A stretch of 64,000 bases of DNA, from positions 38,790 to 102,789 of the forward strand of contig CAZBVQ010000002.1 in NCBI GenBank assembly GCA_964495685.1, written 5' to 3'. Each line of letters opens with the position of its first letter. Position 1 is the first letter of the stretch. Source of the DNA: an uncultured Candidatus Saccharibacteria bacterium (GTDB lineage: Bacteria > Patescibacteriota > Minisyncoccia > Phycocordibacterales > PALSA-1337). Below are positions 950-63,546 of this stretch, one piece after another. The translations under genes and the position numbers were made by a program. Below the pieces are notes generated by a model. That model saw nothing but the letters and a program-made list of their open reading frames with translations, was not told where the DNA came from and made no database searches.

Positions 950-3900
950 TTATTCCTCTGGAGCAACCTCCTTCGGAGCAAGTGTCCCTACCATCTCATT
1001 CTTCTCTGATCCCTTGAACCCTGTACCAGCCGGTACAAGACGTCCGATGATAACGTTTTCCATAAGACCGGTCAGATTGTCCTCCGCACCACGAACAGCG
1101 TTGCCGATGAGCACGCGAGTCGTGTGCTGGAATGAAGCTGCTGACAAGAAGCTCTTGCGTGAGAGAGATGTCTCGGTAATACCCATAACCATCTTCTCTA
1201 CTTTGGCGGCAGAACCACCAGCATCCTTGGCGAGAGTATTCTCTTCGGAAAGCTGAATATCATCGACGATCATGCCTTCAGTGAGGTTGGTATCGCCCGC
1301 ATCCTTGACGCGACGACGTGAGAACATCTGCTTCACGATGAGCTCAATGTGCTTGCGTGAGACTGTTTCACCCTGAAGTTCGTAGATCTTACCAACTTCG
1401 GTAATGACGTAATCCTTGGCACGCTCTTCACCACCAAACTCGAAGACTTCATCAATATCAGCTGAACCATCAGTGAGGAGATCACCCTTCTTGACCTTGT
1501 CGCCTACTTTGACCAGAACGGTACGGCGATACGGGAAGGTGTACTCGACCTGAGCGGCCTTCTTTTTCTTGACGTCTTCAAGCTCAGGAAGGACGGCAAT
1601 GACTTTCTCCTTGCCGAGATCCTTGACCTCAGTCACTACGCCATCGACACTGGCGACCACAGCCGGATTCTTGGGACGGCGCTTCTCGAAGATCTCCTCG
1701 ACACGAGGAAGACCCTGAGTAATATCTCCACCCTGTGAGGCAGCACCACCAGCGTGGAAGACACGCATGGTGAGCTGTGTACCTGGTTCACCGATGGCCT
1801 GAGCAGCTACGGTACCGACAGCTTCACCGATATCAATCAGGCGATTCTTACCGAGGTCGAGACCGTAACACTGGGCACAGACACCACGAACCGTCTTGCA
1901 TGAAAGTGGTGAGCGAACACGTACATCTATCGTTCCTGCCTCTTCGATGACTAGTGCATCAGCCTTGGACACGAGGTGACCCTTCTCGAACAATACCTTG
2001 CCATCCATTCCTTTGACATCTTCAGCGAGGATACGGCCACGAATGTTCTTTGAGAGTGGGATGGTCAGACCTGAAGCTGTCTGACGACGAATGGTGACTG
2101 CCTCTTTGGTGCCACAATCATCTTCAGAGACGATGACGTCTTGAGCGACCACGAAGAGCTTACGTGTGAGGTAACCGGCCTTGGCGGTATTGAGTGCCGT
2201 GTCAGTGAGACCTTTGCGTGAACCGTGTGTCGTAATGAAGTATTCAATCGGTGTGAGACCTTCCTTGGCACACGAAAGAATCGGAAACTCAATCGTACCA
2301 CCAGAGACTGAAGCGATGAGACCCTTCATACCTGCCATGATAGTGATCTGTGAGAGTGAGCCACGAGCGCCTGAGTTGACCATGTCATAGACTGGTCCAT
2401 TCTTGTCGAGCGATCCTGGGATAGTCTTCTCGACTTCACCCTTGGCATGCTGCCAGATCTCAATATGCTTACGAACACGCTCTTCTTCGGTCAAGAGACC
2501 TTCGTTGAACTGACCAGTGACAGTATCTGCCTTATCTTTGGCTCTCTTGATGATCTCATACTTGGCTTCTGGGATGACGATATCATCAATACCCCATGTC
2601 GTACCTGAATAGGTAGCATAGAAGAATCCGAATGACTTGATACGGTCAAGAATCGGGGCTACATTCTCGGCACTATGCAAGGTGATCATGTCGTCGATGA
2701 TAGCAGCGACACGCTTGCGACCAGATTCTTCGTTGATGAACGGATAGTCGATCGGCAATACGTTGTTGAAGAGAATACGACCAACGGTAGTTTCGAAGAT
2801 CGTCTCTTTGAACTTGGCATATTTGGCTTCCTTGGGAGCCAACACTTTGACCTTGGCACGAAGATCGATATCTCCGAAACTGTGTGCAAGCATGGCGGCC
2901 TCCGGCGACTCGAAGATCTTGCCAGTACCCTTGGCACCATCGACAACCTTGGTCACCCAGAAACAACCGAGCACGATATCGAGCAATTTGGCGACAACTG
3001 TTGGATCATTGTTACCTGGCTTGAGGATGTTCTTGTCTGAAGCCATGATTTCACGAGCTTCCATCTGTGCTTCATCTGAGAGTGGGACGTGGACAGCCAT
3101 CTGGTCACCGTCGAAGTCGGCATTGAATGCTGAACATACGAGTGGGTGGACTTGGATAGCGTTACCTTCGATGAGGATTGGCTGGAACGCCTGAATACCG
3201 AGACGGTGCAAGGTCGGTGCACGGTTGAGCAATACGTATTTGCCCTTGATCACCTCTTCGAGAATTTCCCAGACTTCCTTGGAACCATCATCGATAAGGC
3301 GATTGGCGCCGCGAATGTTGTAGGCCAACTCCCTCTTGAGGAGACCCGAGATGACGAACGGGCGGAACAATTCGAGTGCCATGTGCTTGGGCAAACCACA
3401 CTGGTTGAGTCTGAGTTCTGGTCCGACGACGATAACTGAACGACCTGAGTAGTCGACACGCTTACCGAGCAAGTTCTGGCGGAAAAGACCACGCTTGGAC
3501 TTGAGTGAGTCAGAGAGTGACTTGAGAGCACGCTTCTGAGCGGCGGCTGCAGCGGCACCAGCTGACGAACTGTGACGGATAGAGTTGTCGATGAGTGCGT
3601 CGACGGCTTCTTGGAGAATACGCTTCTCGTTACGGAGAATGACTTCTGGTGCATTGATCTCTTTGAGTTTCAAGAGACGATTGTTGCGGTTGATCACACG
3701 ACGATAGAGGTCGTTGACATCCGAAGTGGCATAGCGACCACCATCGAGGGCCACCATCGGACGGATACCCGGCGGAATGACTGGAATACGGATAAGGAAC
3801 ATCCATTCAGGGCGAAGCTTGGCCTTGATCATCTGTTTGACCAATGAGAGACGCTTGGAGAGCTTCTCACGATCAGCAGAACCAGCATCTTCGAGATGCT

Positions 3901-4621
3901 TCTCGAGCTCGGTCTGGAGCTTGGCAAGGTCGATTTTCTTGAGCAAATCATAGATGACTTCAGCGCCAATTCCTGCCTCGAAAATAGAGCCATACTTCAT
4001 GGCGTACTTGTGATAGGTAGTTTCATCCATAACGAAGCCAAGTGAGATCATTTCGATTTCACGACGAGCGTTGACGACGAGCTCCTTGAGAGCTTCCTTG
4101 GTCTTGTCGTCCTGAGCAGTCTTGAGCTTGCTCTTGTATTCACCGTCGAGTTCCTTCAAGAATGACTCCTTCTCTGATTCGTTGACCTTGGTGACGATGT
4201 AGCCAGCGAAGTAGACGACCTTCTCAAGATCAGCCGTAGTCATACCGAGAATGAGACCGATGCGTGACGGGACTGAACGGAGGAACCAAATATGCGACAC
4301 AGGAGAAGCGAGTTCGATGTGGCCCATGCGTTCACGGCGGACGATCGAACGAGTGATTTCGACGCCACACTTCTCACAGACGATACCCTTGTAGCGGATA
4401 CCGCGGTATTTGCCACAGTAACACTCATAGTCTCGGTCTGGACCGAAGATACGCTCATCGAAGAGACCACTCTTCTCACTGCGCTGAGTGCGATAGTTGA
4501 TGGTTTCCGGCTTGGTGACTTCACCGAATGACCATTCCAAGATCTTGTCGGGCGATGCCAGTGACAGCTTGACGATGTCGAACTGTGCGAGATCCATTGA
4601 TTTTTTGATTGGGGTTGTCAT
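950..4621 (-). CDS. rpoC: DNA-directed RNA polymerase subunit beta'
   Basis: 1223 aa. It has the N-terminal zinc-binding CYCGKY...CEKCGV segment and the NADFDGDQMAVHVPLS catalytic motif. Confidence 0.95.
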   Translation of the reverse strand: MTTPIKKSMDLAQFDIVKLSLASPDKILEWSFGEVTKPETINYRTQRSEKSGLFDERIFGPDRDYECYCGKYRGIRYKGIVCEKCGVEITRSIVRRERMGHIELASPVSHIWFLRSVPSRIGLILGMTTADLEKVVYFAGYIVTKVNESEKESFLKELDGEYKSKLKTAQDDKTKEALKELVVNARREIEMISLGFVMDETTYHKYAMKYGSIFEAGIGAEVIYDLLKKIDLAKLQTELEKHLEDAGSADREKLSKRLSLVKQMIKAKLRPEWMFLIRIPVIPPGIRPMVALDGGRYATSDVNDLYRRVINRNNRLLKLKEINAPEVILRNEKRILQEAVDALIDNSIRHSSSAGAAAAAAQKRALKSLSDSLKSKRGLFRQNLLGKRVDYSGRSVIVVGPELRLNQCGLPKHMALELFRPFVISGLLKRELAYNIRGANRLIDDGSKEVWEILEEVIKGKYVLLNRAPTLHRLGIQAFQPILIEGNAIQVHPLVCSAFNADFDGDQMAVHVPLSDEAQMEAREIMASDKNILKPGNNDPTVVAKLLDIVLGCFWVTKVVDGAKGTGKIFESPEAAMLAHSFGDIDLRAKVKVLAPKEAKYAKFKETIFETTVGRILFNNVLPIDYPFINEESGRKRVAAIIDDMITLHSAENVAPILDRIKSFGFFYATYSGTTWGIDDIVIPEAKYEIIKRAKDKADTVTGQFNEGLLTEEERVRKHIEIWQHAKGEVEKTIPGSLDKNGPVYDMVNSGARGSLSQITIMAGMKGLIASVSGGTIEFPILSCAKEGLTPIEYFITTHGSRKGLTDTALNTAKAGYLTRKLFVVAQDVIVSEDDCGTKEAVTIRRQTASGLTIPLSKNIRGRILAEDVKGMDGKVLFEKGHLVSKADALVIEEAGTIDVRVRSPLSCKTVRGVCAQCYGLDLGKNRLIDIGEAVGTVAAQAIGEPGTQLTMRVFHAGGAASQGGDITQGLPRVEEIFEKRRPKNPAVVASVDGVVTEVKDLGKEKVIAVLPELEDVKKKKAAQVEYTFPYRRTVLVKVGDKVKKGDLLTDGSADIDEVFEFGGEERAKDYVITEVGKIYELQGETVSRKHIELIVKQMFSRRRVKDAGDTNLTEGMIVDDIQLSEENTLAKDAGGSAAKVEKMVMGITETSLSRKSFLSAASFQHTTRVLIGNAVRGAEDNLTGLMENVIIGRLVPAGTGFKGSEKNEMVGTLAPKEVAPEE

Positions 4622-10669: not shown

Positions 10670-10713
10670 GTCGCCGTATACTAACAGAATGCCTGAAAAT
10701 GCGCAACTCAAAT

Positions 10714-10753
10714 CCTAGGCCGGGCCTAGAAATGATTCTAGGCCCGGCCTAGA
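10714..10753. repeat. two inverted copies of the palindromic element CTAGGCCGGGCCTAG / CTAGGCCCGGCCTAG separated by AAATGATT
   Basis: Read directly. Copy 1 is at about 10717-10731 and copy 2 at 10739-10753. The second copy supplies the TAG stop codon of the cysteine desulfurase gene (10751..10749, minus strand). Confidence 0.9.
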
Positions 10754-11909
10754 AAAAAACGCTTCGAATGGCCTTGGTTGCAGCGCGTATATCCCCTTTG
10801 GTGGTCCATCTACCGAAGGAGAAACGGAGTGAAGTGCCGCTATCCACCTTCATGGCCCTCAATACATATGACTCTTCGGCGTCTCGAAGACACGAACTTT
10901 TGGTCGAACAAGCAATGCCACGAGCATCGAGCTGGAAGAGGAAAAATTCGTTATCAATTCCAGGAATAGATACGTTCGCAATATGAGGAGACTGCATATC
11001 CTCATCACCACCATTGACCTGAATGTCAGGCCGGATCTCTTTGAGCTCATTGATGAACATGTCGCGCAACGTTTTGATACGATCCGTTTCTTCAATCCGC
11101 TCTTCGACTGCCAACGTGACCGCTTTGGCGAATCCAGCAATCCCCGGAACATTCTCAGTACCTGACCTGAGCCCCTTCTCTTGTCCCCCACCGTACGTGG
11201 TAGCTCGAATGGGTATACCCCGCTTCACATAGAGACAACCCATACCGCGAGGACCGTATACTTTGCCCGCATCGAGCGTCAGGAGATCTACCCCGAGCTT
11301 CTCGACCAATACGTCTTGGAATAGAAATGCCTGTGCCGCATCAGTATGAAGCATTGGGTACTTGGATTCTAGGCCGGGCCTAGCATTTCGTTCCTTGCGT
11401 ACGAGATGTGCGACCTCGGCGATCGGTTGGATTGAACCGACTTCATTGTTGACCATCATGATGGATACCAGCACCGTATGTGGCTTGAATGATTTCTTGA
11501 GTTCATTCAAGTCGACGATCCCGTGAATGTCCACAGGAATCTGGGTAACCTCACACCCCCACCCCTCTAGAGCGGCGGTCATCTCTAGAATAGAGGAATG
11601 TTCGATAGCGGAAATGATGACATGTGGTCGCTCGATACCAGCTACCCGAGCGGCCTGAATGACACCGCTCAGTGCTAGATTGTTGGCTTCAGTACCACCA
11701 GAAGTGAAAATAATCTCATCTGGCTGGGCATGTATAGCAGAAGCAACGGATGCACGCGAAGCCGCCACTACTTTCTTGGCGGCAACACCCTCCTTGTATA
11801 AGGAAGATGGGTTTGCGTATGCAGATGCAGCATATACACCAATCTCCTTGGTAACTCGTGGATCGATGGGTGTCAGTGATGCGTAATCGAGATATATGCG
11901 TCGGGCCAT
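10749..11909 (-). CDS. cysteine desulfurase (NifS/IscS family, PLP-dependent)
   Basis: NifS/IscS-type sequence: TSGGTEANN, HTDAAQAF, and a SxHK-like region. The start is set at the internal ATG MARRIYLDYASL. It carries an in-frame palindromic-repeat insertion encoding NARPGLES just before HTDAAQ. Confidence 0.85.
   Translation of the reverse strand: MARRIYLDYASLTPIDPRVTKEIGVYAASAYANPSSLYKEGVAAKKVVAASRASVASAIHAQPDEIIFTSGGTEANNLALSGVIQAARVAGIERPHVIISAIEHSSILEMTAALEGWGCEVTQIPVDIHGIVDLNELKKSFKPHTVLVSIMMVNNEVGSIQPIAEVAHLVRKERNARPGLESKYPMLHTDAAQAFLFQDVLVEKLGVDLLTLDAGKVYGPRGMGCLYVKRGIPIRATTYGGGQEKGLRSGTENVPGIAGFAKAVTLAVEERIEETDRIKTLRDMFINELKEIRPDIQVNGGDEDMQSPHIANVSIPGIDNEFFLFQLDARGIACSTKSSCLRDAEESYVLRAMKVDSGTSLRFSFGRWTTKGDIRAATKAIRSVFF
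11369..11383. repeat. copy of the CTAGGCCGGGCCTAG palindrome inside the cysteine desulfurase CDS, in frame
   Basis: Identical 15-mer with the same flank GATT...CTAGC. On the minus strand it is translated as A-R-P-G-L-E. Confidence 0.9.
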
Positions 11910-11939
11910 ACCTAGAATGTAACACATATTTTCAGGGAG

Positions 11940-11976
11940 ACAAAAAGGCGCGCCTCCCAAGAACATGGAGGCGCGA
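11940..11976 (-). terminator. minus-strand GC hairpin (CGCGCCTCC / GGAGGCGCG) plus U-run, about 30 nt upstream of the nifS-like start
   Basis: Read on the minus strand: stem, loop ATGTTCTTG, stem, then CTTTTTG. It may be an attenuator of a long leader or the terminator of an unannotated RNA. Confidence 0.45.
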
Positions 11977-12320: not shown

Positions 12321-12836
12321 ATGTTCATTTGTTATATTTTGAGATACACTATGTGCATGTTGAATCTATCCACGAATCCACTACTGATCGGCTTCGTCAT
12401 CTTGGCGGTCGCCACCCTCATCCTCCTTGGTCTCGTCATCTGGATGTACATCCGCATGCGTCGATTCCTGATCGTCGTCGATGCACATAGTATCAGTGAT
12501 TCACTGACACATGTGTCTCATAGTCTCAAGGAGCTCCAGCATTTTCGTGATGACATGGAAGGATATCTCACCGACGTCGAACGTCGTCTACGCAAAAGCA
12601 TACAGTCGGTCCACACGATCCGTTTCAATCCATTCAAAGGTACCGGCGGCGGGGGCAATCAGAGTTTCGCTACGACATTAGTCAATGAAAATGGCGACGG
12701 GGTCATCATTTCGAGTCTCTATTCACGTGACCACGTAAGCGTATTCTCCAAACCTGTCATCAAACATGGTTCTGATTATGAACTCTCCGTAGAGGAACGT
12801 GAATCCTTGGAACATGCCAAAAAAGGCCTAGAATAA
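12321..12836 (+). CDS. DUF4446-like membrane-anchored protein
   Basis: N-terminal transmembrane segment, then RFNPFKGTGGGGNQSFATTLVNENGDGVIISSLYSRDH, which resembles the DUF4446 consensus. Its last codons GGC-CTA-GAA-TAA lie in a half-copy of the palindromic repeat. Confidence 0.55.
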   Translation: MFICYILRYTMCMLNLSTNPLLIGFVILAVATLILLGLVIWMYIRMRRFLIVVDAHSISDSLTHVSHSLKELQHFRDDMEGYLTDVERRLRKSIQSVHTIRFNPFKGTGGGGNQSFATTLVNENGDGVIISSLYSRDHVSVFSKPVIKHGSDYELSVEERESLEHAKKGLE

Positions 12837-13063
12837 GGCCTCCCTGATTCGTATGACTTATTCACAAGGGGCAAGCTTGACAAGCTATTTACTTTCCTTG
12901 TCATATGTGCTATGATGTTGTCAGGTCGTATGAGGTGTAGATCTCATACATGCTCGTTGACATCGAGTATGAAGCAGTCTGTGGCCATGAGGCAGTGCGG
13001 ACTATAACGACTCTCAACAAACCCTTTCCTTCCCTGGAAAGACAACACAGAAAGGAGCAAACG

Positions 13064-25929: not shown

Positions 25930-26038
25930 TGGATTGTGGAGATGTCGTAGATAGGAGCTGTTACCTATTTACCACTTCTTCCCACTTGATGGATATTATA
26001 TCCCACTTTACCCAAAAAAGCATGCAAAATAAGGTGTG

Positions 26039-26165
26039 GATAAGTAGAGGCATATCCCCACACGACATAATTCCTTCCTGACAAGCCGAAAATGTAGCCA
26101 GCGATCAGCGCTTTGAGGCTTGGAAGGAAGGAATTATGTCGTGTGGGGATATGCCTCGATAAGTA
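26039..26165. mobile_element. MITE-like element: 32-bp perfect terminal inverted repeats (GAGGCATATCCCCACACGACATAATTCCTTCC) around a 47-bp core, flanked by 8-bp direct repeats GATAAGTA
   Basis: Arm 1 at 26047-26078, arm 2 at 26126-26157. GATAAGTA at 26039-26046 and 26158-26165 is a TSD-like pair. Confidence 0.45.
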
Positions 26166-26166
26166 T

Positions 26167-26204
26167 CCAGGCCCGGCCTAGAAATATTTCTAGGCCGGGC
26201 CTGG
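26167..26204. repeat. 38-bp perfect palindrome CCAGGCCCGGCCTAGAAATATTTCTAGGCCGGGCCTGG (two inverted repeat units) plus a degenerate tail CTAGGGCCTGG at 26221-26231
   Basis: Read directly. Same family as 10714-10753. Confidence 0.9.
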
Positions 26205-26234
26205 AATCAGAACTTGGAATCTAGGGCCTGGAAC

Positions 26235-35187: not shown

Positions 35188-35247
35188 AATGGGCGGAGAA
35201 TATCACGAAAACCGCAAAAAATCAACCGGAGTATCCCTACCCTCGTT

Positions 35248-35262
35248 CTAGGCCGGGCCTAG
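35248..35262. repeat. copy of CTAGGCCGGGCCTAG between the uvrA start and the response-regulator stop
   Basis: Identical 15-mer with the TTCTAGG...CTAGAATCC flank. Confidence 0.9.
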
Positions 35263-35269
35263 AATCCTC

Positions 35270-36095: not shown

Positions 36096-36177
36096 GCCGG
36101 GGTGGTGAAATTGGTAGACACGCATGCCTTAGGAGCATGTAGAGCAATCTGTGGAGGTTCGAGTCCTCTCCCCGGCA
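36096..36177 (+). tRNA. tRNA-Leu (anticodon UAG), type II with a long variable arm
   Basis: Acceptor GCCGGGG / CCCCGGC. 3-bp D stem. Anticodon arm CAUGC-CUUAGGA-GCAUG. T arm GGAGG-UUCGAGU-CCUCU. Confidence 0.8.
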
Positions 36178-36308
36178 CATGAGCGAAGCGAATGGCAAGA
36201 GCAAGACACCTGCGTGTCTTGCGGGAGAAGGACTCGAAAAGGCTGAGTATATTTCTGAGGAGCTTTGCTCCGAAGAAATACGAAGCCTGTACTGCGCCTG
36301 TAAGGCGA

Positions 36309-36327
36309 GAGTCCTCTCCCCGGCACA
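36309..36327 (+). repeat. 19-bp perfect direct repeat of the tRNA-Leu 3' end (GAGTCCTCTCCCCGGCACA), 129 bp downstream of the tRNA
   Basis: Identical to 36161-36179. The region between contains no tRNA 5' half. Confidence 0.85.
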
Positions 36328-38090: not shown

Positions 38091-38729
38091 TTATTTTTTT
38101 AACGCACTAAATTTATACTCCCACCCCGGCTGCCACTTGAACTTCGTGATCACCAACGTCTCTAGCGGCACCCCATTCACCACATGCTCAATACCATACT
38201 GCGTCGCACGATGACCGATCACCATGACACGCTTGCCTTGATAGTTCTTGATCAAATCCTCCAAGAATGACCTCATGCGCGCCGTCGTCTGCGTGTAGCT
38301 CTCACCGTTTGGAAATGGTGTCTCGATGCGCTTCGGCTTCTCCACATCCACCTGCTCGCTTGGCGCCTGCGTCAGATCGCCATAGTTACATTCACGAAGC
38401 CGGGCGTCCTGAATAATCGGCCATTTGGAACCAAAACCAATCTCGGCACTCTTGTATGCCCGCTGTAGATCCGAGCAGAAAATAGCGTCGAAGTGGTCTT
38501 CCTTGTAACGTTCTCCCATTTCCTTGGATTGCTGAATACCGAGAGGCGACAAGGCTACGTCATTGTGGCCAGATGACAAATGGGCTTCGTTATCAAATGT
38601 GGTGCCGTGAGCTTCGAAGATGAGGGTGAGTATGGGTGTAGGATAGTGTGATTTGAGGCTTATTTCTAGGCCTGTTTTTTGATATTGACAATATACTATA
38701 TTATATGTTAACATGTTATTGGCGGTCAA
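38091..38729 (-). CDS. histidine phosphatase (phosphoglycerate-mutase-like) family protein
   Basis: HGTT...SPLG...GHRATQ pattern, with the catalytic RHG replaced by AHG. It has an unusual 30-aa N-terminal extension that contains a half-copy (TCTAGGCCTG, 38655-38664) of the palindromic repeat. Confidence 0.6.
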   Translation of the reverse strand: MTANNMLTYNIVYCQYQKTGLEISLKSHYPTPILTLIFEAHGTTFDNEAHLSSGHNDVALSPLGIQQSKEMGERYKEDHFDAIFCSDLQRAYKSAEIGFGSKWPIIQDARLRECNYGDLTQAPSEQVDVEKPKRIETPFPNGESYTQTTARMRSFLEDLIKNYQGKRVMVIGHRATQYGIEHVVNGVPLETLVITKFKWQPGWEYKFSALKK

Positions 38730-47518: not shown

Positions 47519-47533
47519 CTAGGCCGGGCCTAG
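47519..47533. repeat. copy of CTAGGCCGGGCCTAG in the 25-nt spacer between rpiB and rpe
   Basis: Identical 15-mer, 5 nt from the rpiB stop and about 7 nt from the rpe start. Confidence 0.9.
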
Positions 47534-47536: not shown

Positions 47537-48004
47537 TTATTCAATCGCATCTATCTGTTCAATCCGTCTCTGGTGTCTCTCATCTCCACTGAAAGGTGTA
47601 CTCAACCAAACTCCCACAGCATCACATGCTCCATCTGCATCGACATATCGCGCACCTATGGAAAGTACATTGGCATCATTGTGCTCGCGTGACTTCTTCA
47701 GGATATCCTGATCCCCACCATACCAGACCGCAGCACGGACTCCGGGGAAGCGATTGGCGACCATGGCTTCACCCTGCCCTGATGCACCGAAAATGATGGC
47801 TTTGGTATTCCCGGTAATATCTTCGGCGACTTTGAGCGCAGCGGCCGACATGAAAACGGGATAATCATCGCCGTCTACCAGCTCATGCGCCCCCACGTCG
47901 AGAACGGTGTACATATCTGCATGTTCACGTGCCAGAAATGCTTTGACGGCTTCTTTGGCGGCGAAACCAGCGTGATCGGAGGCGAGGATGATAGTGGTGT
48001 TCAT
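47537..48004 (-). CDS. rpiB: ribose-5-phosphate isomerase B
   Basis: MNTTIILASDHAGF and an RpiB/LacAB fold of 155 aa. Confidence 0.88.
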   Translation of the reverse strand: MNTTIILASDHAGFAAKEAVKAFLAREHADMYTVLDVGAHELVDGDDYPVFMSAAALKVAEDITGNTKAIIFGASGQGEAMVANRFPGVRAAVWYGGDQDILKKSREHNDANVLSIGARYVDADGACDAVGVWLSTPFSGDERHQRRIEQIDAIE

Positions 48005-48103
48005 GCCCCTATCTTAGCACACTAGTTTTCTTTTTGTTCACCAACTAATAGAGCCCCCGAGACGATCGTCACAGCAAGCATTCCAGGCGTAGCTACCTAT
48101 AAC

Positions 48104-48478
48104 CTATTGATTTGGATACCTAACATTTGAAGTAGACGTATCATTCACATAAACTGTCGCTGGTTTTTCTAGTCGATTACAACGTCTGCCGAGAGATAAT
48201 TGCAGATCGCAATTAGTACCGAAAACATATACGGCTCCAACTGATACCAGAATAATTACTACAAATGTCACGCTTCTAATCGTGAGACTCTGAATAGCGA
48301 AAATCAAATGACCGATAAGCCAGGCCAAAAATAAAGCCAGAAACGGTGACAACAAGAATACTGGTATCAAAAACTCTCCACCATCTGTTACTTGGTCCGA
48401 GATAAGAATCAAAACAACCGCACTGAGAGCAAAAGCTGGTAACAAACCAATAACTACTCGCTTAAAGATATTTGTCAT
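48104..48478 (-). CDS. hypothetical multi-TM membrane protein
   Basis: 124 aa, hydrophobic. Preceded by conserved leader element copy 1. Confidence 0.45.
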   Translation of the reverse strand: MTNIFKRVVIGLLPAFALSAVVLILISDQVTDGGEFLIPVFLLSPFLALFLAWLIGHLIFAIQSLTIRSVTFVVIILVSVGAVYVFGTNCDLQLSLGRRCNRLEKPATVYVNDTSTSNVRYPNQ

Positions 48479-48483
48479 GTTTT

Positions 48484-48562
48484 TTAATTATTACACTAAC
48501 CTCCCCGCTCTGATCACCTGCCCCACCACTGTATACATGTACCCATCTCATTATCACGTTAG
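48484..48562 (-). promoter_or_regulatory. conserved leader element, copy 1 (in gene orientation: ...GTATAC..GTGG.GCA.GTGATCA.AGCGGGGAG.TTA...TAATAATTAA then ATG)
   Basis: About 80% identical to 49469-49547 over roughly 50 nt. Contains TGATCA and GTATAC palindromes. Confidence 0.5.
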
Positions 48563-48566
48563 AACT

Positions 48567-49466
48567 TTATCTCGTAATGGTGAAATACTTATCACTCGTA
48601 TCGACAATGCCTCTTCCTCCTCCATAATTTGTCACCCCAATTTCTATTTTATAGTTACCTGGAGAAAGGCTGAATCTGTCCTCGGGCAAACTCGATGTCT
48701 TACCTATACACATAGTAGTCGCAGGAGTAAAAATAAAGACTCCTTGTTTCGCTGAAACTTCTCCATCAACAGGATCACAGAAATCAGAGAAGTCTGTCCC
48801 CGATCTAAGTCTGATAGCAACTTTGGCGTCATTAGATAAACCCGATGATGTCCACTTGATCGATTTTGATTCAGACATTTTCCAGATCTCTCCGCCATTA
48901 GGAGAAATAATGGTTATGGAAGGGACTGAAACAGGCTGTGTCACGGGACTATTAGTCGTCTCACTTACTTTAGGTTGAGCTGAGATTGTAAACAGCTCGC
49001 TCTTATTCCCTACCCCCACAATTTCTCCAGTTGAATAAAGACCTATGCGATATTTACCAGGCTGTACAACTCCTTGAACTTCGTCGCCTTGAATAATCCA
49101 GCTAAACGAGCCTGAGTTTGGCGATCCTTGAGAAATTTTTCGAACCGTATTGCCATTCTGGTCAATAAGATTAATGCCAATCCCTGCCGTATTAATGTCC
49201 ATTCCCAATCCACTGGAATTCCAATTAATCTTCAAATTGTCTCCAATTTTATATGTCTCTCCGTTTTTCGGCGAAGTAATCATAATTGAAGGCGAAGCAG
49301 CTGGTTGTGATGTTACTGAGGCATCATCAGTTTGATTAACTTGGGGTTGCTGTTGGTCAATACTTACTGATTTTTTAATAAATGCAAAATAACCGACAGC
49401 AACTAAAAGAACAATTATAAGTACAATCAACCAAATATTTACTGATCCCTTTTGTGTATTCTTCAT
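48567..49466 (-). CDS. secreted/anchored protein with two tandem beta-sandwich-like repeats
   Basis: N-terminal TM segment. Repeat units ITSPKNGETYKIGDNLKINWNSSG...GKYRIGLYS...ELFTI and IISPNGGEIWKMSESKSIKWTSSG...GNYKIEIGV...KYFTI. Confidence 0.5.
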   Translation of the reverse strand: MKNTQKGSVNIWLIVLIIVLLVAVGYFAFIKKSVSIDQQQPQVNQTDDASVTSQPAASPSIMITSPKNGETYKIGDNLKINWNSSGLGMDINTAGIGINLIDQNGNTVRKISQGSPNSGSFSWIIQGDEVQGVVQPGKYRIGLYSTGEIVGVGNKSELFTISAQPKVSETTNSPVTQPVSVPSITIISPNGGEIWKMSESKSIKWTSSGLSNDAKVAIRLRSGTDFSDFCDPVDGEVSAKQGVFIFTPATTMCIGKTSSLPEDRFSLSPGNYKIEIGVTNYGGGRGIVDTSDKYFTITR

Positions 49467-49468
49467 AA

Positions 49469-49547
49469 ATTTAAATTATTAAATTAATCTCCCCGCCTTG
49501 ATCACATGCTCCACAAGCGTATACGTATACCCCATTTCGTTGTTATA
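49469..49547 (-). promoter_or_regulatory. conserved leader element, copy 2
   Basis: See copy 1. It lies immediately upstream of the ATG at 49466. Confidence 0.5.
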
Positions 49548-49768
49548 CCATGCGGGTAATTTTTCCCTGTTTTTTGTCATATTGCAGAAATTATATCATG
49601 AGTTCAATCTTTAAATCTCCGTTCGCCCGTCTTTTGAAACAGCAAAAATTTGTAGTCTCAAAAGGCGAGCGAGAGATAAAATATGCTGTCAATGTTCTTG
49701 CTTTACATGATAAACAAACACTTGTTTAATAGCAAGCGCTGAAATATGGCCTGAACACTGCTTAATTC

Positions 49769-50740
49769 CTAGCAATGAACAGCTCTTGTTCTTGGAATCT
49801 TGTATTTCTTGTGTCTCTGGTTTCTTGGTACATTTCTGAAGGAATCGTAACGACGCTGGAGATCGGGACCGGTCATCATCGTATAAATCATCGAACTCTC
49901 AAGACTTGAGTGACCGAGAATATTTGAAACGTCTGAATTTGATCCGCCCTTGTTCACAATATCTCGACCCATATAATGTCGCATTGAGTGCGCATTCATT
50001 GTTGGTATACCAGCACGGTTAGAATTAGTGCGGAGCATTTCAGCCACGTTGAAGGTGGTCATTCTTTTTCCTCTCACATCATTCTGACCACACTTTGAAA
50101 CTGTAACAAATAGCGCATCGAGGTCTTCAAAGCTAAATAGTTTATATAAATGTTTTCTCTTGCTTACCCACTTTTTGAGGAGAGCATTTGTGGTTGGTGT
50201 CCAAAAAATTTCACGAATCGGTCTACGACCGCGTGATTTTTCTGTGCGTATGAGCGCTTTGCGATTATCCAAATCAAGATCGCCAACATTTAAAGAAACG
50301 ATCTCGCCGTTTCGAGCGCCCGTATCCCAGAGTAATGATATGACTGCCCTGTTTCTAATGTGATGAGGATTATTACCCTTTGGAATAGAGTTAAGTAATT
50401 TTTTGAAACCTTGTTCAGTTGCAATTCGAGGTATGTTGTACTCTTTCTTGGGGGTTGGAATAAGAAATTCATTAATAACTTTAAAGCCTTGAAGGTTATA
50501 AAATTCAAAGAATTTCTTGAGGGCCAAGGTGACAATACGAATGCCGTTTCTTTTCCAGCCGAGCTCTGTCATCAAATTCAAATAATCCATCACGTGCTGA
50601 ATAGTGATGTTTTCTATATGCGGATTTTTGAGATAGAGACAAAAGATGCGAAGCACTTTGTCGTATCGTTTGACCGTATGACCGGTCACTTTGATCTGTC
50701 TCCAACCGCTGAATTGGTCGATAGCGTCTTTGAATAGCAT
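49769..50740 (-). CDS. tyrosine-type site-specific recombinase/integrase
   Basis: C-terminal catalytic region AHSMRHYMG...LGHSSLESSMIYT (R..H..R..Y residues) and an N-terminal SAM-like domain. Confidence 0.85.
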   Translation of the reverse strand: MLFKDAIDQFSGWRQIKVTGHTVKRYDKVLRIFCLYLKNPHIENITIQHVMDYLNLMTELGWKRNGIRIVTLALKKFFEFYNLQGFKVINEFLIPTPKKEYNIPRIATEQGFKKLLNSIPKGNNPHHIRNRAVISLLWDTGARNGEIVSLNVGDLDLDNRKALIRTEKSRGRRPIREIFWTPTTNALLKKWVSKRKHLYKLFSFEDLDALFVTVSKCGQNDVRGKRMTTFNVAEMLRTNSNRAGIPTMNAHSMRHYMGRDIVNKGGSNSDVSNILGHSSLESSMIYTMMTGPDLQRRYDSFRNVPRNQRHKKYKIPRTRAVHC

Positions 50741-51154
50741 ACATGGCCAACCAAAAAGCCCACTCGATGCTACTCAAAGTGGACTTCTGGTGGCCGTCTG
50801 CTCATAGAGCTTATTGCCATTCCCTAGCTAGGGAGACATAACCTCGCGGTCACATCATCAACATTTTCCCCTATCCTTTAGGAAATAGCAAGGTCATGTT
50901 TTGATCAAAAGTCCATCGGTAGCATCAGGTCATTCTGACCCTGATCCCTTACGGGGCGATGGAGCATATTCGGTTGTCACTACATCCTAGTGTAGTGCCT
51001 TTCCATTGTCAAGAAGGATATTTCATTGGATAGTAATATGGAGAGCAGAACATCAAAATAGTCAATTAAAATAAGGCTTTTTTGAGATATATAAAGAAAA
51101 GTCACATCACCTTTTAAGCAATGCGACTGTGTTTTTCGGAAAATGATCTATTTG

Positions 51155-52153
51155 TCAGAGCTTTTCCCGAATCTGCTCCAAAAAGGCAGCGATGCTCATA
51201 TCCAAGGCCGGTAAATGCCCTTGAGCGTCAATTTCGATAGGTAATGATACCCTCGGATTCTTGCTCAAAAGCTCACTTATCGTCATTTTGGACCCCATAA
51301 GGCTGAAGATTTCGATGCTGATATCAAGGCAAAGCCTCGACAAGTCTCGTGCTCCTTCAGTCGGCAGACTTGCCCACTCCTCGATCCTGCCGAATGGAAG
51401 GATGTATGGATAAGCACAACTGAAACCGTCTGGGGTTCGGACCGGCATCAAACTTTGCGATGTCTGCTCACCGATGACACGTCCACAGTTCGGACTGAAT
51501 GGGATGAGGTCGTGATCGGGAATCCAATCAATGAGATCTTTGATCGGATGCACCATCACAATCTCGCCGGTAAATACTTCCTGAATAGTTGATCGTGAGC
51601 CATTACAACAGAATCCGAGAATGATCGCCGTAACCTTGATACTTCTGCTTTCAAGCTCATGGAGGACAAACTTGAGTGTGCCTCCAGTGAATGCACCGTC
51701 TTCAATTAGCACGATTGAACGACCGGCGATCTTCTCGGTTAGCTCATCAAGCTGTGTCCCCAGCGGATCGAATCCTGGACGCGGACCATACCCTATCATC
51801 ACTCCGTCTGAATTAAACAACCGATTGATGTTGAGGAGTAAACCTTCGCTTTTTGGATTTGAGTCTGCGATCTCGAAGCAGGTGCTGAGAACTGCTTGCT
51901 GACTGAGGTCGGTGATACGACCATCGACTTGTTCCCAGATTTTTCGCCGAAGCTCATTCATCTCGATTGTGTCGATCGTGATGCTTGGCAGAGCTCGTTG
52001 TATCTTTTTAAACAAACCGATGTGGAAGCGCTCAAACAATAAATCATCCGGCTGTGGGACAGCAAAGCCTTTTGCACGGAATGACTGAAGCCGACTGGCA
52101 ACATCGTAGGTAACCACATAGGTTCCACGACGATCCGAATGGATTTCTGACAT
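51155..52153 (-). CDS. phosphoribosyltransferase (PRTase)-domain protein of unknown specificity
   Basis: PRPP-binding motif SIVLIEDGAFTGGTL in the middle of a 332 aa protein. The flanking regions match no family I recognise. Confidence 0.5.
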   Translation of the reverse strand: MSEIHSDRRGTYVVTYDVASRLQSFRAKGFAVPQPDDLLFERFHIGLFKKIQRALPSITIDTIEMNELRRKIWEQVDGRITDLSQQAVLSTCFEIADSNPKSEGLLLNINRLFNSDGVMIGYGPRPGFDPLGTQLDELTEKIAGRSIVLIEDGAFTGGTLKFVLHELESRSIKVTAIILGFCCNGSRSTIQEVFTGEIVMVHPIKDLIDWIPDHDLIPFSPNCGRVIGEQTSQSLMPVRTPDGFSCAYPYILPFGRIEEWASLPTEGARDLSRLCLDISIEIFSLMGSKMTISELLSKNPRVSLPIEIDAQGHLPALDMSIAAFLEQIREKL

Positions 52154-52235
52154 GGAAACCTCCTATGGTTGAATTGTTTATGGAAAAGAACTGATTGAAA
52201 TCAGTTCTCAGTGTATCTCTATATCAATGAATTAG

Positions 52236-52559
52236 CTAATTATTCCCCTCATCCTTCATTCGATCGATGAGCATTTTGTATCCGCCACAGCCTTCTTTGA
52301 GCCAACGATTAATTTTGGTGATTGTCACGGGAGACTCGCCTGACTCCTCTTGAATCTGAGAAAAAGGAACGCCTGCATCAAGCTTCTTGGCAACCTCCCA
52401 GCGCATGGCAAATTCTCGGAGATCACGCTCACTCATCAGGTCACGGAAGAATGCTTTGAGTTCATCCTCGTTTTTGAGCGACAAAAAAGCCTTGATCAAA
52501 TCGGGAGATTTTTGTTGTATCTCAGCCCATATTCCGTTTTTTTCTTCATCAGGAATCAT
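52236..52559 (-). CDS. TrpR-like YerC/YecD family DNA-binding protein
   Basis: FFRDLMSERDLREFAMRWEVAKKL...GESPVTITKINRWLKEGCGGY is close to the YerC/YecD consensus. Confidence 0.75.
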   Translation of the reverse strand: MIPDEEKNGIWAEIQQKSPDLIKAFLSLKNEDELKAFFRDLMSERDLREFAMRWEVAKKLDAGVPFSQIQEESGESPVTITKINRWLKEGCGGYKMLIDRMKDEGNN

Positions 52560-52577
52560 ATTTAATAAATTATAACA

Positions 52578-53330
52578 TTACTTCCCTTTCCAGTGAACCA
52601 CTCGATTTTCGATAAACATCATTATTTTGTTCAATACAAATCCGATGACACCAGTCATGAGTATAGCTGCGTACATATCAGCTGTTTGGTACACAAGTTG
52701 AGCATCAATAATACGTTTTCCAAGACCTGCTTCAGTACCGATAAACATTTCAGTAACGATGACGATTATGAGGGAGAGTGAGATCGCGACACGGAAGCCC
52801 GAAAAGATTTGTGGCAATGCTTCAGGAAAAATGACCTTCCGGAAAAGTTCAAATCCTTTCACTTTCATTGTTTTGGCAACACGCACACGTAACTCTTTGC
52901 CGAGGTGTACTCCGTACATTGAGTTAATAAGGATCACCAGACCAGCTCCCCATGCAGTGACGGCAAATTTAGCCTGATCGCCAATTCCAAATACAAGAAG
53001 AAATAGAGGAAACAATGCTGTTGTCGGAATGCCTCGAAAAAACTCAACAGTGAATTCAAGAGCATTGTAAATCTTACTTGAATAGCCCATGAGAAGTCCG
53101 AGTGGTACTCCAATAATTGCCGCAACAGCAAAGCCAACCAGAACACGATATAGTGTGTGCCCTATGTCATTCAACATTGTTCCATTTTGGATTGAATCAA
53201 TAAGGTGGATAAATACATCATATGGAGATGCTAGGAATAGAGGACTGACAAGTTGTAAATATGAAATTACCCACCAGAGGCAGAGTAGAATTATCGGTAT
53301 CAGAACGTAATATAATTTCTTATTTTTCAT
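52578..53330 (-). CDS. ABC transporter permease (nitrate/sulfonate/taurine/ThiX type)
   Basis: Six TM segments and a binding-protein-dependent transport motif (ALNSMYG...). Confidence 0.85.
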   Translation of the reverse strand: MKNKKLYYVLIPIILLCLWWVISYLQLVSPLFLASPYDVFIHLIDSIQNGTMLNDIGHTLYRVLVGFAVAAIIGVPLGLLMGYSSKIYNALEFTVEFFRGIPTTALFPLFLLVFGIGDQAKFAVTAWGAGLVILINSMYGVHLGKELRVRVAKTMKVKGFELFRKVIFPEALPQIFSGFRVAISLSLIIVIVTEMFIGTEAGLGKRIIDAQLVYQTADMYAAILMTGVIGFVLNKIMMFIENRVVHWKGK

Positions 53331-54072
53331 ATTCGAAAGTATTTAGAATTGCATTACGAAGCTCGGTAAATTCAGGACTTGAAAGCATATCGAGGGTTCT
53401 TGGGCGTGGAAGTTTTACCTCAAAAATCTTTTTTATACTCGCGGGGCGAGGAGAAAGTACTACTACTTTATCGGCCAGAAAAATTGCCTCGTCTATATCA
53501 TGACTTACAAATAAAGTAGTTATCTTTTTCTCTTGCCAAATATCGAGAAGCTCCAATTCCATCTTTCGCGTGGTTGAATAATCAAGAGCAGAAAATGGCT
53601 CATCCATAATCAGAATATCTGGGTCATAGGCAATAGAGCGACATATAGAAACAAGCTGACGTTGACCGCCAGAGAGTTCGTAGACAAACCTATCTTTTGA
53701 GTGAAGTAGACCCACCTTGTTCAATAAGTGCTCAGCGATTTTTTGCTGCTTATCCTTATTGACTCTCGCAATCTCGAGTGGAAAAACAATATTTTCCAAA
53801 ACTGTCCGCCAAGGGAATAGGCTCTCGTTATAATTCTGAAATACAAAACCCACTTGAGCATCTTTAGGATTTTTGCCGCTTACCTTTACTTCACCTGATT
53901 CAGGGATTTCAATTCCAGCAACAATATTGAGTAGAGTTGTTTTACCTGATCCATTCGGGCCGAAAACAGTTACGAATTCACCTTTATTCACCTCAAGGTC
54001 AATGCCGTCAATAACTCTGGTATCACCAGAATCTTTTTTAAAGGTTTTTGCTATTCCGGCAAGTGAAATCAT
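53320..54072 (-). CDS. ABC transporter ATP-binding protein
   Basis: GPNGSGKTTL Walker A, LSGGQRQLVSICRS signature, ILIMDEPFSALD Walker B. Confidence 0.9.
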   Translation of the reverse strand: MISLAGIAKTFKKDSGDTRVIDGIDLEVNKGEFVTVFGPNGSGKTTLLNIVAGIEIPESGEVKVSGKNPKDAQVGFVFQNYNESLFPWRTVLENIVFPLEIARVNKDKQQKIAEHLLNKVGLLHSKDRFVYELSGGQRQLVSICRSIAYDPDILIMDEPFSALDYSTTRKMELELLDIWQEKKITTLFVSHDIDEAIFLADKVVVLSPRPASIKKIFEVKLPRPRTLDMLSSPEFTELRNAILNTFEYEK

Positions 54073-54078
54073 TACAGT

Positions 54079-55035
54079 CTATTTGTAATACGCATTGGTC
54101 AAATCTGGTTTTGATGTGAACTCTCCAGAGGCGACTAAAATGTCAAGTAATTTAGCAACAAGAGTTTTATCTATCTGCTGCGAATTTCTAAAGTAAGTCA
54201 TCCCGAGAACATCAACTACTTTCTGATCTAGCTTGAAAAGTGTCCTCGTCATATCCCTTACGTCTTTATCATTTGTATGGAGATAATCGAAAGCCCGATC
54301 AAAAGCATTTACAACTTTCTTAGCCTCACGAGGATGATTATTCACAAATTGAGTGCTTACGAGCGCTACCCCTAATGGACTGTGCTCTAATTGTTCAGAA
54401 TAGACTGAACCATAAATCTTCCTTATTCCACCACTTGTAAGTGCGATAGATATTGTAGGTTCATATGTGAATAAGGCGTCAATTGAACCTGCTGTAAGCG
54501 CAGTGAGGTGTTGTGGTGGTGGTAATTGTACAAATTGGATTGTGGAAGAATCTATGCCCTTTTCCTTAAGAAAAAGTTTGAACATATTTGAAGCACTCGT
54601 GCCTGGAAATACCCCAATCTTTTTGCCCTTCAAATCCTCGAGAGTCTTAATGGTAGAGTTTTCTTTTACCAAAAGGGAGTCAAACGGCACATCGCTCGTA
54701 ATATCAGTTAGAGCGATAATTTTCATTTTGCCAGGATCAACCATTTCAGCATTCAGATATGGAAGTATAGATATTTCAGGAGTGAGATCTATGTCTCCCC
54801 GAGCAAGCGCATCAACAATTTGATTTGAGGTCTGAAGTTGTGTGGCTTGAACAGTGATACCCTGATCTTCAAAAAACTTTTTCTGTTGAGCTATTTCTAA
54901 AGGAAGTTGGCTGGCTGTTATAGGTAGATATCCAATTTTTACCACATAGTCTGAGGGTTTATTTGAGCTTCCGATCCGAACAGCTACTAAAGCCAACACT
55001 ACTACGATTCCTATTATCCAAAATGATTTTTTCAT
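54079..55035 (-). CDS. ABC substrate-binding protein, NMT1/THI5/SsuA-like (paralogue 1)
   Basis: Signal peptide, then IGYLPITASQLPL. The C-terminal SKPDLTNAYYK is shared with the paralogue at 56931. Confidence 0.8.
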   Translation of the reverse strand: MKKSFWIIGIVVVLALVAVRIGSSNKPSDYVVKIGYLPITASQLPLEIAQQKKFFEDQGITVQATQLQTSNQIVDALARGDIDLTPEISILPYLNAEMVDPGKMKIIALTDITSDVPFDSLLVKENSTIKTLEDLKGKKIGVFPGTSASNMFKLFLKEKGIDSSTIQFVQLPPPQHLTALTAGSIDALFTYEPTISIALTSGGIRKIYGSVYSEQLEHSPLGVALVSTQFVNNHPREAKKVVNAFDRAFDYLHTNDKDVRDMTRTLFKLDQKVVDVLGMTYFRNSQQIDKTLVAKLLDILVASGEFTSKPDLTNAYYK

Positions 55036-55165
55036 GCTAATAAAATTAATGTTTTTTGATAAAATCTGAATTCTAAAGGCTTGCAACATTCTACCACAAA
55101 TGATGCCCCGTGTGTAGTTTTTTTAGGATTTTTGGACTCTAATCAAAAGAAGGACAATTAGAATA

Positions 55166-55864
55166 CTATTGCATAGCACTGTCCTTACCTAGAATCGCCT
55201 TATTTAAATACATGAAAGGAATGTTCACCAACCCGACCAACCACTTGATTGCTGTTTGTCCGATTATAAGAGGCATGATTGGTAATGTACCCAGAAATGC
55301 TATTGGAATAAATATCAAACTATCCAGAAGTAATGCAGGTATAGAACTGAATACATTTCTAGACCACAAATGCTTACCATTGGTAAATTTCTTGAACCAT
55401 GAATACACATAGGCATCGAAGTTTTCGGTAATAAGAAATGCTATCCAGCTTGCAATTGTAATTCTTGGAACTAAATTGAAGATCTGCTCCCATGATCCCT
55501 GAAGTGTCCAAAATGGTGCCGCAGGAAATTTGACTCCAAGCCAGAAAAAGAACATCATCGCTATCTGAGATACAAAAGCGATCATAATCATCTTAGAGAC
55601 TTCCCTTCTCCCAAATTTTTCATTCACTATGTCAGTGAAGAGATATGTAATAGAAAAAACAAGAACCCCACTTGGCCCGTAGAATGCACCAAACCCGAGA
55701 TCGAAAGCGGAAATCTTTGCAGCCAAAACTTGTGCAACCAACACAAATGTCACATACAATCCAATAAGTAAATCAGATCTATTGTATTTTCGGGCATACC
55801 AGCTTCCGAGAAGTGTAAAACTGGTAATACCCACAATCCAGATTATTAGTAGATATATGCTCAT
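55166..55864 (-). CDS. queuosine-precursor transporter YhhQ (DUF165) family
   Basis: VFSITYLFTDIVNEKFGRREVSKMIMIAFVSQIAMMFFFW matches the YhhQ core. Multi-TM. Confidence 0.7.
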   Translation of the reverse strand: MSIYLLIIWIVGITSFTLLGSWYARKYNRSDLLIGLYVTFVLVAQVLAAKISAFDLGFGAFYGPSGVLVFSITYLFTDIVNEKFGRREVSKMIMIAFVSQIAMMFFFWLGVKFPAAPFWTLQGSWEQIFNLVPRITIASWIAFLITENFDAYVYSWFKKFTNGKHLWSRNVFSSIPALLLDSLIFIPIAFLGTLPIMPLIIGQTAIKWLVGLVNIPFMYLNKAILGKDSAMQ

Positions 55865-55871
55865 ATGCTGT

Positions 55872-56591
55872 TTATTTTAACTTAATCCTATAATTTATCC
55901 AAACAAAACCATCTTCGCTTCTTTCATGTCTCTCTACCACCTGATATCCATAGTCGTTTATCATTTTTTCTATTATCTCAAAATCGTGACGAGGCTCTAA
56001 GGTATGTGCACTTTGAAGATTGGCGTGCGGTAAATGAATGATCCCTTCTCTACTCAAGAAAATTTTTGCCTCAGTAAAAAATCGCTTGTGTAATGTAAAA
56101 TCATTATCGTATAGAGCCTGGTCAATAAAATCATTGCCCGCAGGAAAATTTACAAAAGGTAAATTTGCAATAATGAGATCATATTTTTTACTTGGATAAT
56201 TTGAGAAAAGGTTAGATGAAAAAACTGTTATCTTGTCCTGTAAACCATTAAGCAATACATTGTGTTCGGCGCACTCAACCGCTTGAGGATTAATGTCAGA
56301 GCAATCTACGTGCACCGCACCAGCAAGTGACGCAACGATTGATTGGACTCCAGTGCCACATCCAATGTCTGCGACATTGAAGCCTCTTAAATCGCCGAAT
56401 GTTTCAAAAACAGACTTTGAGCTTGGTGCATGATCTGGAGGAAATACAGTTGGAAATACATCTATAAGAACTGACTTATCTTCAAAATTTATTTTGGTAC
56501 GATAAATACCTTCTATGGATTTATTTTTTAGGAATGAGGAAAATTTCTTAGTGTGCTCTGGATTAATTTTTGTTATAGGGTCTAAGGTCAT
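55872..56591 (-). CDS. class I SAM-dependent methyltransferase (HemK/RsmC-like, NLPF variant of the NPPY motif)
   Basis: ADIGCGTGVQS (motif I) and DLIIANLPF (motif IV). Confidence 0.65.
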   Translation of the reverse strand: MTLDPITKINPEHTKKFSSFLKNKSIEGIYRTKINFEDKSVLIDVFPTVFPPDHAPSSKSVFETFGDLRGFNVADIGCGTGVQSIVASLAGAVHVDCSDINPQAVECAEHNVLLNGLQDKITVFSSNLFSNYPSKKYDLIIANLPFVNFPAGNDFIDQALYDNDFTLHKRFFTEAKIFLSREGIIHLPHANLQSAHTLEPRHDFEIIEKMINDYGYQVVERHERSEDGFVWINYRIKLK

Positions 56592-56597
56592 GATCGT

Positions 56598-56918: not shown

Positions 56919-56930
56919 TGTTTTTCCAAT

Positions 56931-57890: not shown

Positions 57891-57943
57891 AAAAGTTAGT
57901 AATAAATCTATGGCTCTAGGGCCAATCTATATAATTTGTTATA

Positions 57944-59364: not shown

Positions 59365-59365
59365 G

Positions 59366-60247: not shown

Positions 60248-60257
60248 ATATTACTTA

Positions 60258-62941: not shown

Positions 62942-62945
62942 AAAA

Positions 62946-63542: not shown

Positions 63543-63546
63543 AAAA

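Follow-up and report, generated by a model that had tools for sequence, protein, structure and literature searches.

The palindromic repeat and the gene that contains a copy

The DNA considered here is a 64-kb stretch of contig CAZBVQ010000002.1 from an uncultured Candidatus Saccharibacteria bacterium (hereafter the window, to which positions refer unless preceded by a locus label), in which a 15-nt palindrome, CTAGGCCSGGCCTAG, recurs both between genes and, in one case, in frame inside a gene for a cysteine desulfurase. Comparison sequences carry our labels L001-L056 and P0001/P0002. The features on which the argument turns are the following:

10749..11927 (open reading frame (ORF) 10749..11966), minus strand: class-V aminotransferase/cysteine desulfurase gene, 392 residues as called in Logan
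11361..11396, minus strand: codons of a variable loop, K172-K183, between the invariant R171 and Y184; in the model between helix 163-175 and strand 186-190
11369..11383, no strand assigned: single genic copy CTAGGCCGGGCCTAG (CTAGGCCCGGCCTAG-AATC on the gene strand), inside the cysteine desulfurase coding sequence
10715..10752, no strand assigned: inverted doublet resembling a REPIN (REP doublet forming a hairpin; REP, repetitive extragenic palindromic element), two 15-mers (copies at 10715 and 10738) with an 8-nt spacer, 17-bp stem
26166..26205, no strand assigned: inverted doublet with one mismatch per copy (copies at 26167 and 26190), a perfect 40-nt palindrome with 20-bp arms
35246..35264, no strand assigned: single copy with the full TT/AA extension, TTCTAGGCCGGGCCTAGAA (core at 35248), 7 nt past the stop of a response-regulator gene and upstream of uvrA
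47519..47533, no strand assigned: single copy in the 25-nt rpiB-rpe spacer, separated by 3 nt from the preceding rpiB stop and by 7 nt from the ATG of rpe

When up to two mismatches are allowed, CTAGGCCSGGCCTAG has seven matches in the window, where 0.02 are expected, and none of 100 shuffles reaches seven, and chance occurrence of the 15-mer is therefore rejected. Five of the seven are exact, no additional copies appear in the window when the limit is raised to three mismatches, and this is the only 14-mer family with at least three occurrences in the window. The first-pass annotation of this DNA had taken the genic sequence for a copy of a palindrome that recurs elsewhere in the window, and with this the counts fully agree, the genic copy being a perfect one. 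The copies are distributed over five loci, namely two inverted doublets and three single copies, one of the latter being genic. The element is a perfect palindrome with one central base, TTCTAGGCC-S-GGCCTAGAA, both ends of which read CTAG, and since several copies share a GATT/AATC flank, the length of the element can be given as 15 nt for the core, 19 nt with TT/AA and at most 23 nt with GATT/AATC.

Four of the five loci fall in the non-ORF fraction, which makes up about 11.6% of the window (binomial P ~8e-4), and these same four are found 0-30 nt after the stop codon of an upstream co-directional minus-strand gene (desulfurase, glucose-6-phosphate dehydrogenase (G6PD), response regulator and RpiB). 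The doublet at 10715-10752 overlaps the TAG stop of the desulfurase gene itself, upstream of rpsP, while the doublet at 26166-26205 is found 30 nt past the G6PD stop and upstream of mraZ. As RNA the two doublets fold strongly, with -39 kcal/mol (z -7.9) and -39.6 kcal/mol (z -8.1) respectively. A loose terminator scan furthermore picks the former, as 10713-10754 on the minus strand, with 19 pairs and the tail TTTGAGTTGC. The single copies and the 26166 doublet have no U tract. At gathering thresholds Rfam returns only tRNAs in the window and no family for the palindrome, and an analysis of restriction-site avoidance was uninformative, CTAG, GGCC and CCGG all being mildly under-represented with ratios of 0.82-0.87.

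The spacer between the G6PD gene and mraZ has further features of its own. Adjoining the doublet, at 26047-26157, is a 111-nt inverted repeat with 46-nt arms that are 91% complementary, and this may be a second, larger palindromic element. Just upstream of mraZ, at 25960-26020 on the minus strand, GTGGG repeats that resemble MraZ operator boxes overlap a TATAAT sequence.

Association with RayT transposases in other lineages

When JGI metagenomes and the representative genomes of GTDB were scanned with the 17-mer TTCTAGGCCSGGCCTAG, 45 loci were returned, most of them singletons in unrelated high-GC taxa, and among the GTDB representatives there were singleton matches in unrelated taxa only. Two groups of loci are however of a different kind. 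The first is one 71-kb contig (ERZ1048872 NODE-212, GC 0.37, our L025/L029), which contains three CTAG-ended, spacer-less doublets, CTAGGCCCGGCCTAG joined back to back to CTAGGCCGGGCCTAG, at L025:2234-2263, L025:2906-2935 and L029:1570-1599. Two of these doublets bracket a 214-aa Y1_Tnp gene (Pfam E=9.6e-9), the homologues of which are annotated 'REP element-mobilizing transposase RayT' and identify the host as a SUP05/Thioglobus-like gammaproteobacterium. The presence of the same REP core in so distant a lineage suggests either convergence on a hairpin recognised by RayT or horizontal transfer.

The second group is made up of a single element represented by eight loci (L006 and others, GC 0.38-0.47), where the 15-mer is found about 80 nt upstream of a second lineage of RayT. 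This protein is 33-36% identical to the RayT of L025, its gene sits among GC-rich palindromes, and its relatives include a 'transposase [Patescibacteria group bacterium]'. Three further RayT loci of this family, those examined in Patescibacteria, are likewise flanked by perfect palindromes (L049/L050, L051 and, on the upstream side only, L048). Those of L049/L050 and L051 have a single central base, L051 having TTCCAAGGTC-A-GACCTTGGAA on both sides, which, judged from the sequence, is the same architecture as that of TTCTAGGCC-S-GGCCTAGAA. A REP-like family accompanied by RayT genes in relatives is thus now seen in Patescibacteria, whereas REP/RayT systems have to our knowledge been studied almost wholly in Proteobacteria.

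Concerning the L006 locus itself, GC-rich palindromes (GGGCTCAGCCCGGSACGGGCTGAGCCC) surround the RayT gene (780..~1300) at L006:645-746, 1412-1553 and 2183-2228, and the C-terminal tail of the RayT ORF reads through GC-rich repeats (LSPGRAEP / FSPGRAEP).

It might be argued that the palindrome is instead a DNA site of the host, that is, an operator for a dimeric regulator, a site for a nucleoid protein or the uptake signal of a naturally competent Patescibacterium, and that the genic copy merely happens to fit the loop. The perfect dyad, the strict conservation and the absence of degenerate copies at three mismatches would be in agreement with this, as would the fact that each intergenic copy also lies upstream of a gene (rpsP, mraZ, uvrA and rpe), and in Neisseria, too, uptake sequences occur both within genes and, in the form of inverted pairs, behind them. 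The genes downstream are however functionally unrelated, and the sites hug the upstream stop codon rather than promoter regions. Moreover, neither an operator nor an uptake signal predicts that an identical 15-mer should flank RayT genes in two other lineages. Neisseria uptake sequences and Correia-type repeats do share with the present element that they are short exact repeats, forming terminator-like inverted pairs behind genes and occasionally found within them, but the motif in the window is much sparser than the uptake sequences, it is linked to a transposase in other genomes and nothing points to uptake. A host site is therefore in our view an unlikely explanation, and a repeat mobilised by RayT is to be preferred.

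The cysteine desulfurase and its in-frame copy

The ORF containing the genic copy matches Pfam Aminotran_5 (PF00266) with E=5.6e-59, and its best sequence matches among solved structures are cysteine desulfurases (E=4e-71). An AlphaFold model of the protein, with a mean pLDDT of 89.3, gives TM scores of 0.87-0.90 when superposed on NFS1 and on IscS of E. coli. Fold, sequence family, the lysine for pyridoxal phosphate (PLP), the catalytic cysteine loop and the HxDxxQ block are all those of a group I (IscS/NifS-type) desulfurase. According to the alignment the enzyme is intact, as the invariant residues K216, C340, H104, H188, D190 and Q193 are all present. The likelier start of the protein is MARRIYLDY at 11909, and residues are numbered from its methionine. 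Its best homologues are all 'cysteine desulfurase family' proteins of Patescibacteria/Paceibacteria, and the gene order DUF4446 (divergent), desulfurase, S16, KhpA and TrmD is kept in relatives, so that orthology of the desulfurase is secure. The only near-identical sequence found, a 2.4-kb contig in Logan from a second sample of this species (L002, run DRR274959), is 99.4% identical in nucleotide sequence, encodes an identical protein and retains all three of the nearby palindromes.

As the first-pass annotation had stated, the palindrome with its GATT flank is read in frame within the coding sequence, and this of an intact gene. The codons GCT AGG CCC GGC CTA GAA specify A176-R-P-G-L-E181, followed by S-K-YPMLHTDAAQ. 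In the model the block encoded by the repeat has a pLDDT of 91-94 and includes a short helix, 179-183, and its residues are predicted to lie at the far end of the strand that at its other end bears D190, which by homology with IscS we take to be the aspartate contacting PLP.

The choice of residues is dictated by the palindrome, since TAG triplets at its positions 2-4 and 13-15 leave only one of the three frames open on either strand. A genic copy can hence only be read as xCT-AGG-CCS-GGC-CTA-Gxx, and R-P-G-L is forced. The half-sites had been described as repeatedly read as Gly-Leu-Glu, but this is nothing more than a consequence of the only stop-free frame, and annotators should read no more into it than that the other two frames contain stop codons.

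Loop length in orthologues

The desulfurase is indeed longer at this point than typical IscS proteins, alignment with solved IscS/NifS structures giving about seven extra residues. The further suggestion of an 8-10 residue insertion encoded by repeat DNA is however not in agreement with the loops of orthologues. Alignment of the 120 best homologues, from which the identical P0001 was left out to give 119 orthologues from Patescibacteria, shows that the segment between R171 and Y184 is 6-40 residues long, with a median of 14 and a mean of 15.4, as against 12 in the query, and in 71% of the orthologues it is as long as in the query or longer. At most 5-6 codons of the loop can be ascribed to the repeat, and subtracting five codons leaves a loop of seven residues, which is still inside the observed range. 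Loops of equal length thus occur in orthologues free of the palindrome, what is shared being the length and not the sequence, and this outcome essentially refutes the notion of an insertion of that size. Since the orthologue loops are as long and none of the orthologue loci that were read contains the 15-mer, the extra length relative to E. coli-type IscS is a native feature of the clade. A difference in loop length from E. coli-type enzymes should accordingly not be taken by annotators as evidence of a recent insertion. Insertion of the 15-mer itself into the loop is plausible. In the nearest orthologue, P0002, which is 71% identical and whose DNA is in L001, the palindrome is absent and the loop comprises nine residues, three fewer than in the query.

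This difference of three rather than five codons, together with a loop length that is ordinary for the clade, might also be explained if the doublet at the gene's own 3' end had been the source of a local gene conversion or a template switch that overwrote an existing part of the loop. The proximity of the two sites, 617-654 bp apart, is in favor of this. On the other hand, outside the core of 15-19 nt there is no homology between the flanks of the genic copy and those of the doublet that could seed conversion, and as the nearest orthologue is only 71% identical, it does not fix the ancestral loop. We consider conversion improbable, and in any case it concerns the route by which the copy arrived and not the identity of the repeat.

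Even less probable, to the point of being very hard to sustain, is that the genic copy has been selected for a function of its own, be it that its RNA hairpin causes transcription or translation to pause or that ARPGLE forms a useful patch on the surface of the enzyme. The copy is retained in the second sample and the structural model is confident in precisely this block, but 99.4% nucleotide identity is too close a relationship to reveal selection. The local RNA fold is furthermore weak (-10.5 kcal/mol, z -1.75), and among the 119 orthologues, none of which has the ARPGLE peptide, no part of the protein is less conserved than the loop. A tolerated copy of a mobile repeat is the reading that we retain.

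In-frame palindromic inserts in relatives

In-frame insertion of palindromic DNA can be seen more directly in related genomes. Compared with its orthologue in L049, to which it is 77% identical, the UvrD-like protein of L006 (ORF 2234..4216) contains 19 additional residues, cleanly inserted in frame, and the 81 nt of DNA responsible (L006:2459-2539, -52.6 kcal/mol) carry the repeat that flanks the RayT gene 1 kb upstream. Furthermore, of five long-loop desulfurase orthologues for which the DNA could be read (L052-L056), three contain other hairpin-forming inserts in the very same loop, an observation that is new here. In L053, a Minisyncoccia metagenome-assembled genome (GCA_049997795.1, contig JBEKVT010000003.1), the loop folds with -55.6 kcal/mol (z -6.6 versus other gene windows) and contains a 71-nt core that is present in the same frame in the desulfurase loop and in translation initiation factor IF-2 (L053:6517-6587 and L053:4409-4479, 98.6% identity), whereby both proteins contain RALSA(G/R)GALPPISPLRSEITGDSS. 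The loop of L052 encodes a hairpin of about 100 nt (-38.8 kcal/mol, z -5.0), and in L056 a 39-nt hairpin (z -4.6) corresponds exactly to the insert AVSSTSKNEEENG. The long loops of L054 and L055 have no hairpin, and not all of the variation in loop length can therefore be derived from palindromes.

These findings raise the possibility, to be viewed as tentative and as somewhat more doubtful than not, that across Patescibacteria mobile palindromic repeats unrelated to one another have repeatedly landed in the loop between R171 and the strand of the conserved aspartate, which would thus serve as a landing pad. Patescibacteria have small, streamlined genomes, and yet their proteins often contain unexplained insertions. 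Were the landing-pad notion to hold generally, in-frame hairpins of the RayT/REP type and of the kind of miniature inverted-repeat transposable elements would be a main source of lineage-specific protein insertions in the candidate phyla radiation. Within the related loci themselves, the UvrD insertion, the repeat shared by IF-2 and desulfurase and the loop hairpins represent a concrete and testable source for some of the variation in protein length.

Interpretation as a probable REP-type element

Taken together, we conclude that CTAGGCCSGGCCTAG is probably a REP-type repeat, of which the genic copy is a tolerated in-frame passenger in a naturally hypervariable loop. The reference match is the REP/REPIN-RayT system as it is portrayed in PMC3116915, PMC3337134, PMC5581495 and PMC3733652, and the match rests on the over-representation, the position 3' of genes, the inverted doublets and the association with RayT elsewhere. 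The likeness extends to several particulars, as the element in the window is a short GC-rich palindrome, strongly over-represented, mostly extragenic and found just 3' of co-directional genes, as it forms inverted doublets with long hairpins (17- and 20-bp arms), and as the identical sequence flanks RayT in other lineages, on both sides in L025 and upstream in loci of the L006 type. According to PMC3733652, REPs are mostly extragenic and occur between genes that are co-directional or convergent, close to where the upstream ORF ends, and the arrangement as an inverted doublet is what the term REPIN denotes in PMC3337134 and PMC3116915. The occasional in-frame genic copy is likewise shared with REPs of other phyla (PMC3733652), such copies being known in several species and phyla, in particular in uvrA, uvrB and uvrD (Di Nocera et al., PMC3733652). 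The kind of event is in other words already known, and it is the lineage that is new.

By analogy, the hairpin would in single-stranded form be the substrate of a RayT-type HUH/Y1 tyrosine transposase (RayT, REP-associated tyrosine transposase, an IS200/IS605-like enzyme), which would recognise, cut and copy it and whose gene would lie, or have lain, in another part of the genome, and this copying would spread single copies as well as REPIN-like inverted doublets. Most surviving copies would be found just past stop codons, and there the hairpins, once transcribed, may stabilise mRNA 3' ends or attenuate them. The copy at 11369-11383 would have landed in the desulfurase loop, or replaced part of it, as a passenger, and if translated it would probably be neutral. 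That it could be tolerated is understandable, because 15 nt correspond to five codons, because the palindrome has a single stop-free frame and because the loop is free to vary between 6 and 40 residues.

Several observations nonetheless weigh against this interpretation. The element is only 15-19 nt long as compared to about 20-40 nt for REPs. Whereas REPs are imperfect palindromes, its two arms match perfectly around the one central base, and its ends read CTAG instead of the GTAG tag of classical RayT-associated REPs (the GTAG-REP superfamily). A further difference is that the host is a Patescibacterium. In REP systems the repeat flanks a RayT gene, usually single-copy, of the same genome, but no cognate RayT was found within the 64-kb window, either by tblastn or with a hidden Markov model of 240 RayTs run on six-frame ORFs; the linkage between REP and RayT is seen in other genomes, the search in the source organism having covered the window only. 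RNA folds of the single copies are weak, at -8.7 to -10.5 kcal/mol and without a significant z. Finally, no presence/absence polymorphism of the 15-mer was found, and since all three copies are also present in L002, which is the only close relative, insertion into the loop cannot be shown but is something that we infer.

The first-pass annotation had likened the in-frame copy to Rickettsia palindromic elements (RPEs), and in one respect the parallel is a good one, since palindromic repeat DNA is indeed read in frame in an intact gene, as it is in conserved genes of Rickettsia at regions that tolerate insertion. In the relatives longer elements behave likewise (the 71 nt of L053, in frame in both desulfurase and IF-2). 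The comparison with in-frame reading in Rickettsia is thus right in kind for these organisms. It does not however extend to membership of the RPE family. RPE-1 elements are about 100-150 nt long, and we know of no dedicated transposase for RPEs. The present element is CTAG-ended, measures 15-19 nt, contributes at most 5-6 residues, has no sequence similarity to RPEs and is linked to RayT in other lineages, and it is the discrepancy in size together with this linkage that sets it apart from the family. The short families of R. conorii are on their part CGTC-tagged (Di Nocera et al., PMC3733652).

Solo half-sites

Two half-sites of the palindrome, in the DUF4446 gene and in a histidine phosphatase gene, had also been taken as instances in which the repeat is read as Gly-Leu-Glu. 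Their positions must first be corrected, as the half-site GGCCTAGAA is found at 12825-12833, with the TAA stop at 12834-12836 (not 12828-12836 for the half-site), and the second at 38664-38672 on the minus strand (not 38655-38664). The 7-mer GGCCTAG occurs 14 times where 3.25 are expected, but 12 of these are within full copies, and of the 9-mer GGCCTAGAA there are two solo sites, compared to an expectation of 0.30 for all sites. Solo half-sites are thus not clearly above chance.

In DUF4446 the tripeptide is native sequence, since the C-termini of orthologues read KKGLE* (L053), KKGL* (L054), KKNL* (L052) and KGGLR* (L055), and the KKGLE* of L053 is encoded by different codons, AAG GGG TTG GAA TAA. 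In the histidine phosphatase the residues concerned are G20-L21-E22, whereas homologues align from query residue 33-36 onwards to their own residue 2-5. The stretch is hence common to no homologue, and as it is found downstream of a promoter-like TTGACC-18-TATAAT, it is, as far as sequence can tell, probably a 5' leader. Half-sites as remnants of the repeat are accordingly rejected, on the grounds that solo GGCCTAG is at chance level, that KKGLE is native and that the phosphatase site is in an unshared stretch.

Some additional observations on these two genes should be mentioned. The phosphatase ORF has no ATG, GTG or TTG at the start position of its homologues (38631-38729, minus strand), the equivalent codon being ATA at 38631-38633. 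The only in-frame starts upstream overlap the strong promoter-like TTGACC-18-TATAAT, and the catalytic RHG motif reads AHG. A motif of 18 nt, AGGCCTAGAA(A)TAAG(G)CCT, is common to the segments 12824-12841 (plus strand) and 38656-38673 (minus strand); it forms a small hairpin, and shuffling predicts 0 occurrences of it. It was defined post hoc, its first copy overlaps the conserved KKGLE-stop of DUF4446, and the likeness is unexplained.

Other features of the window

The 3' end of a tRNA-Leu gene (36096-36178) at 36161-36179 is duplicated about 148 nt downstream at 36309-36327 (GAGTCCTCTCCCCGGCACA), and this looks like the attachment-site scar of an integrated element. Over the final 16 kb of the window (48001-64000) the GC content falls from about 0.48-0.52 to 0.39-0.42, and the copies of the palindrome are all located before this drop at 48001.

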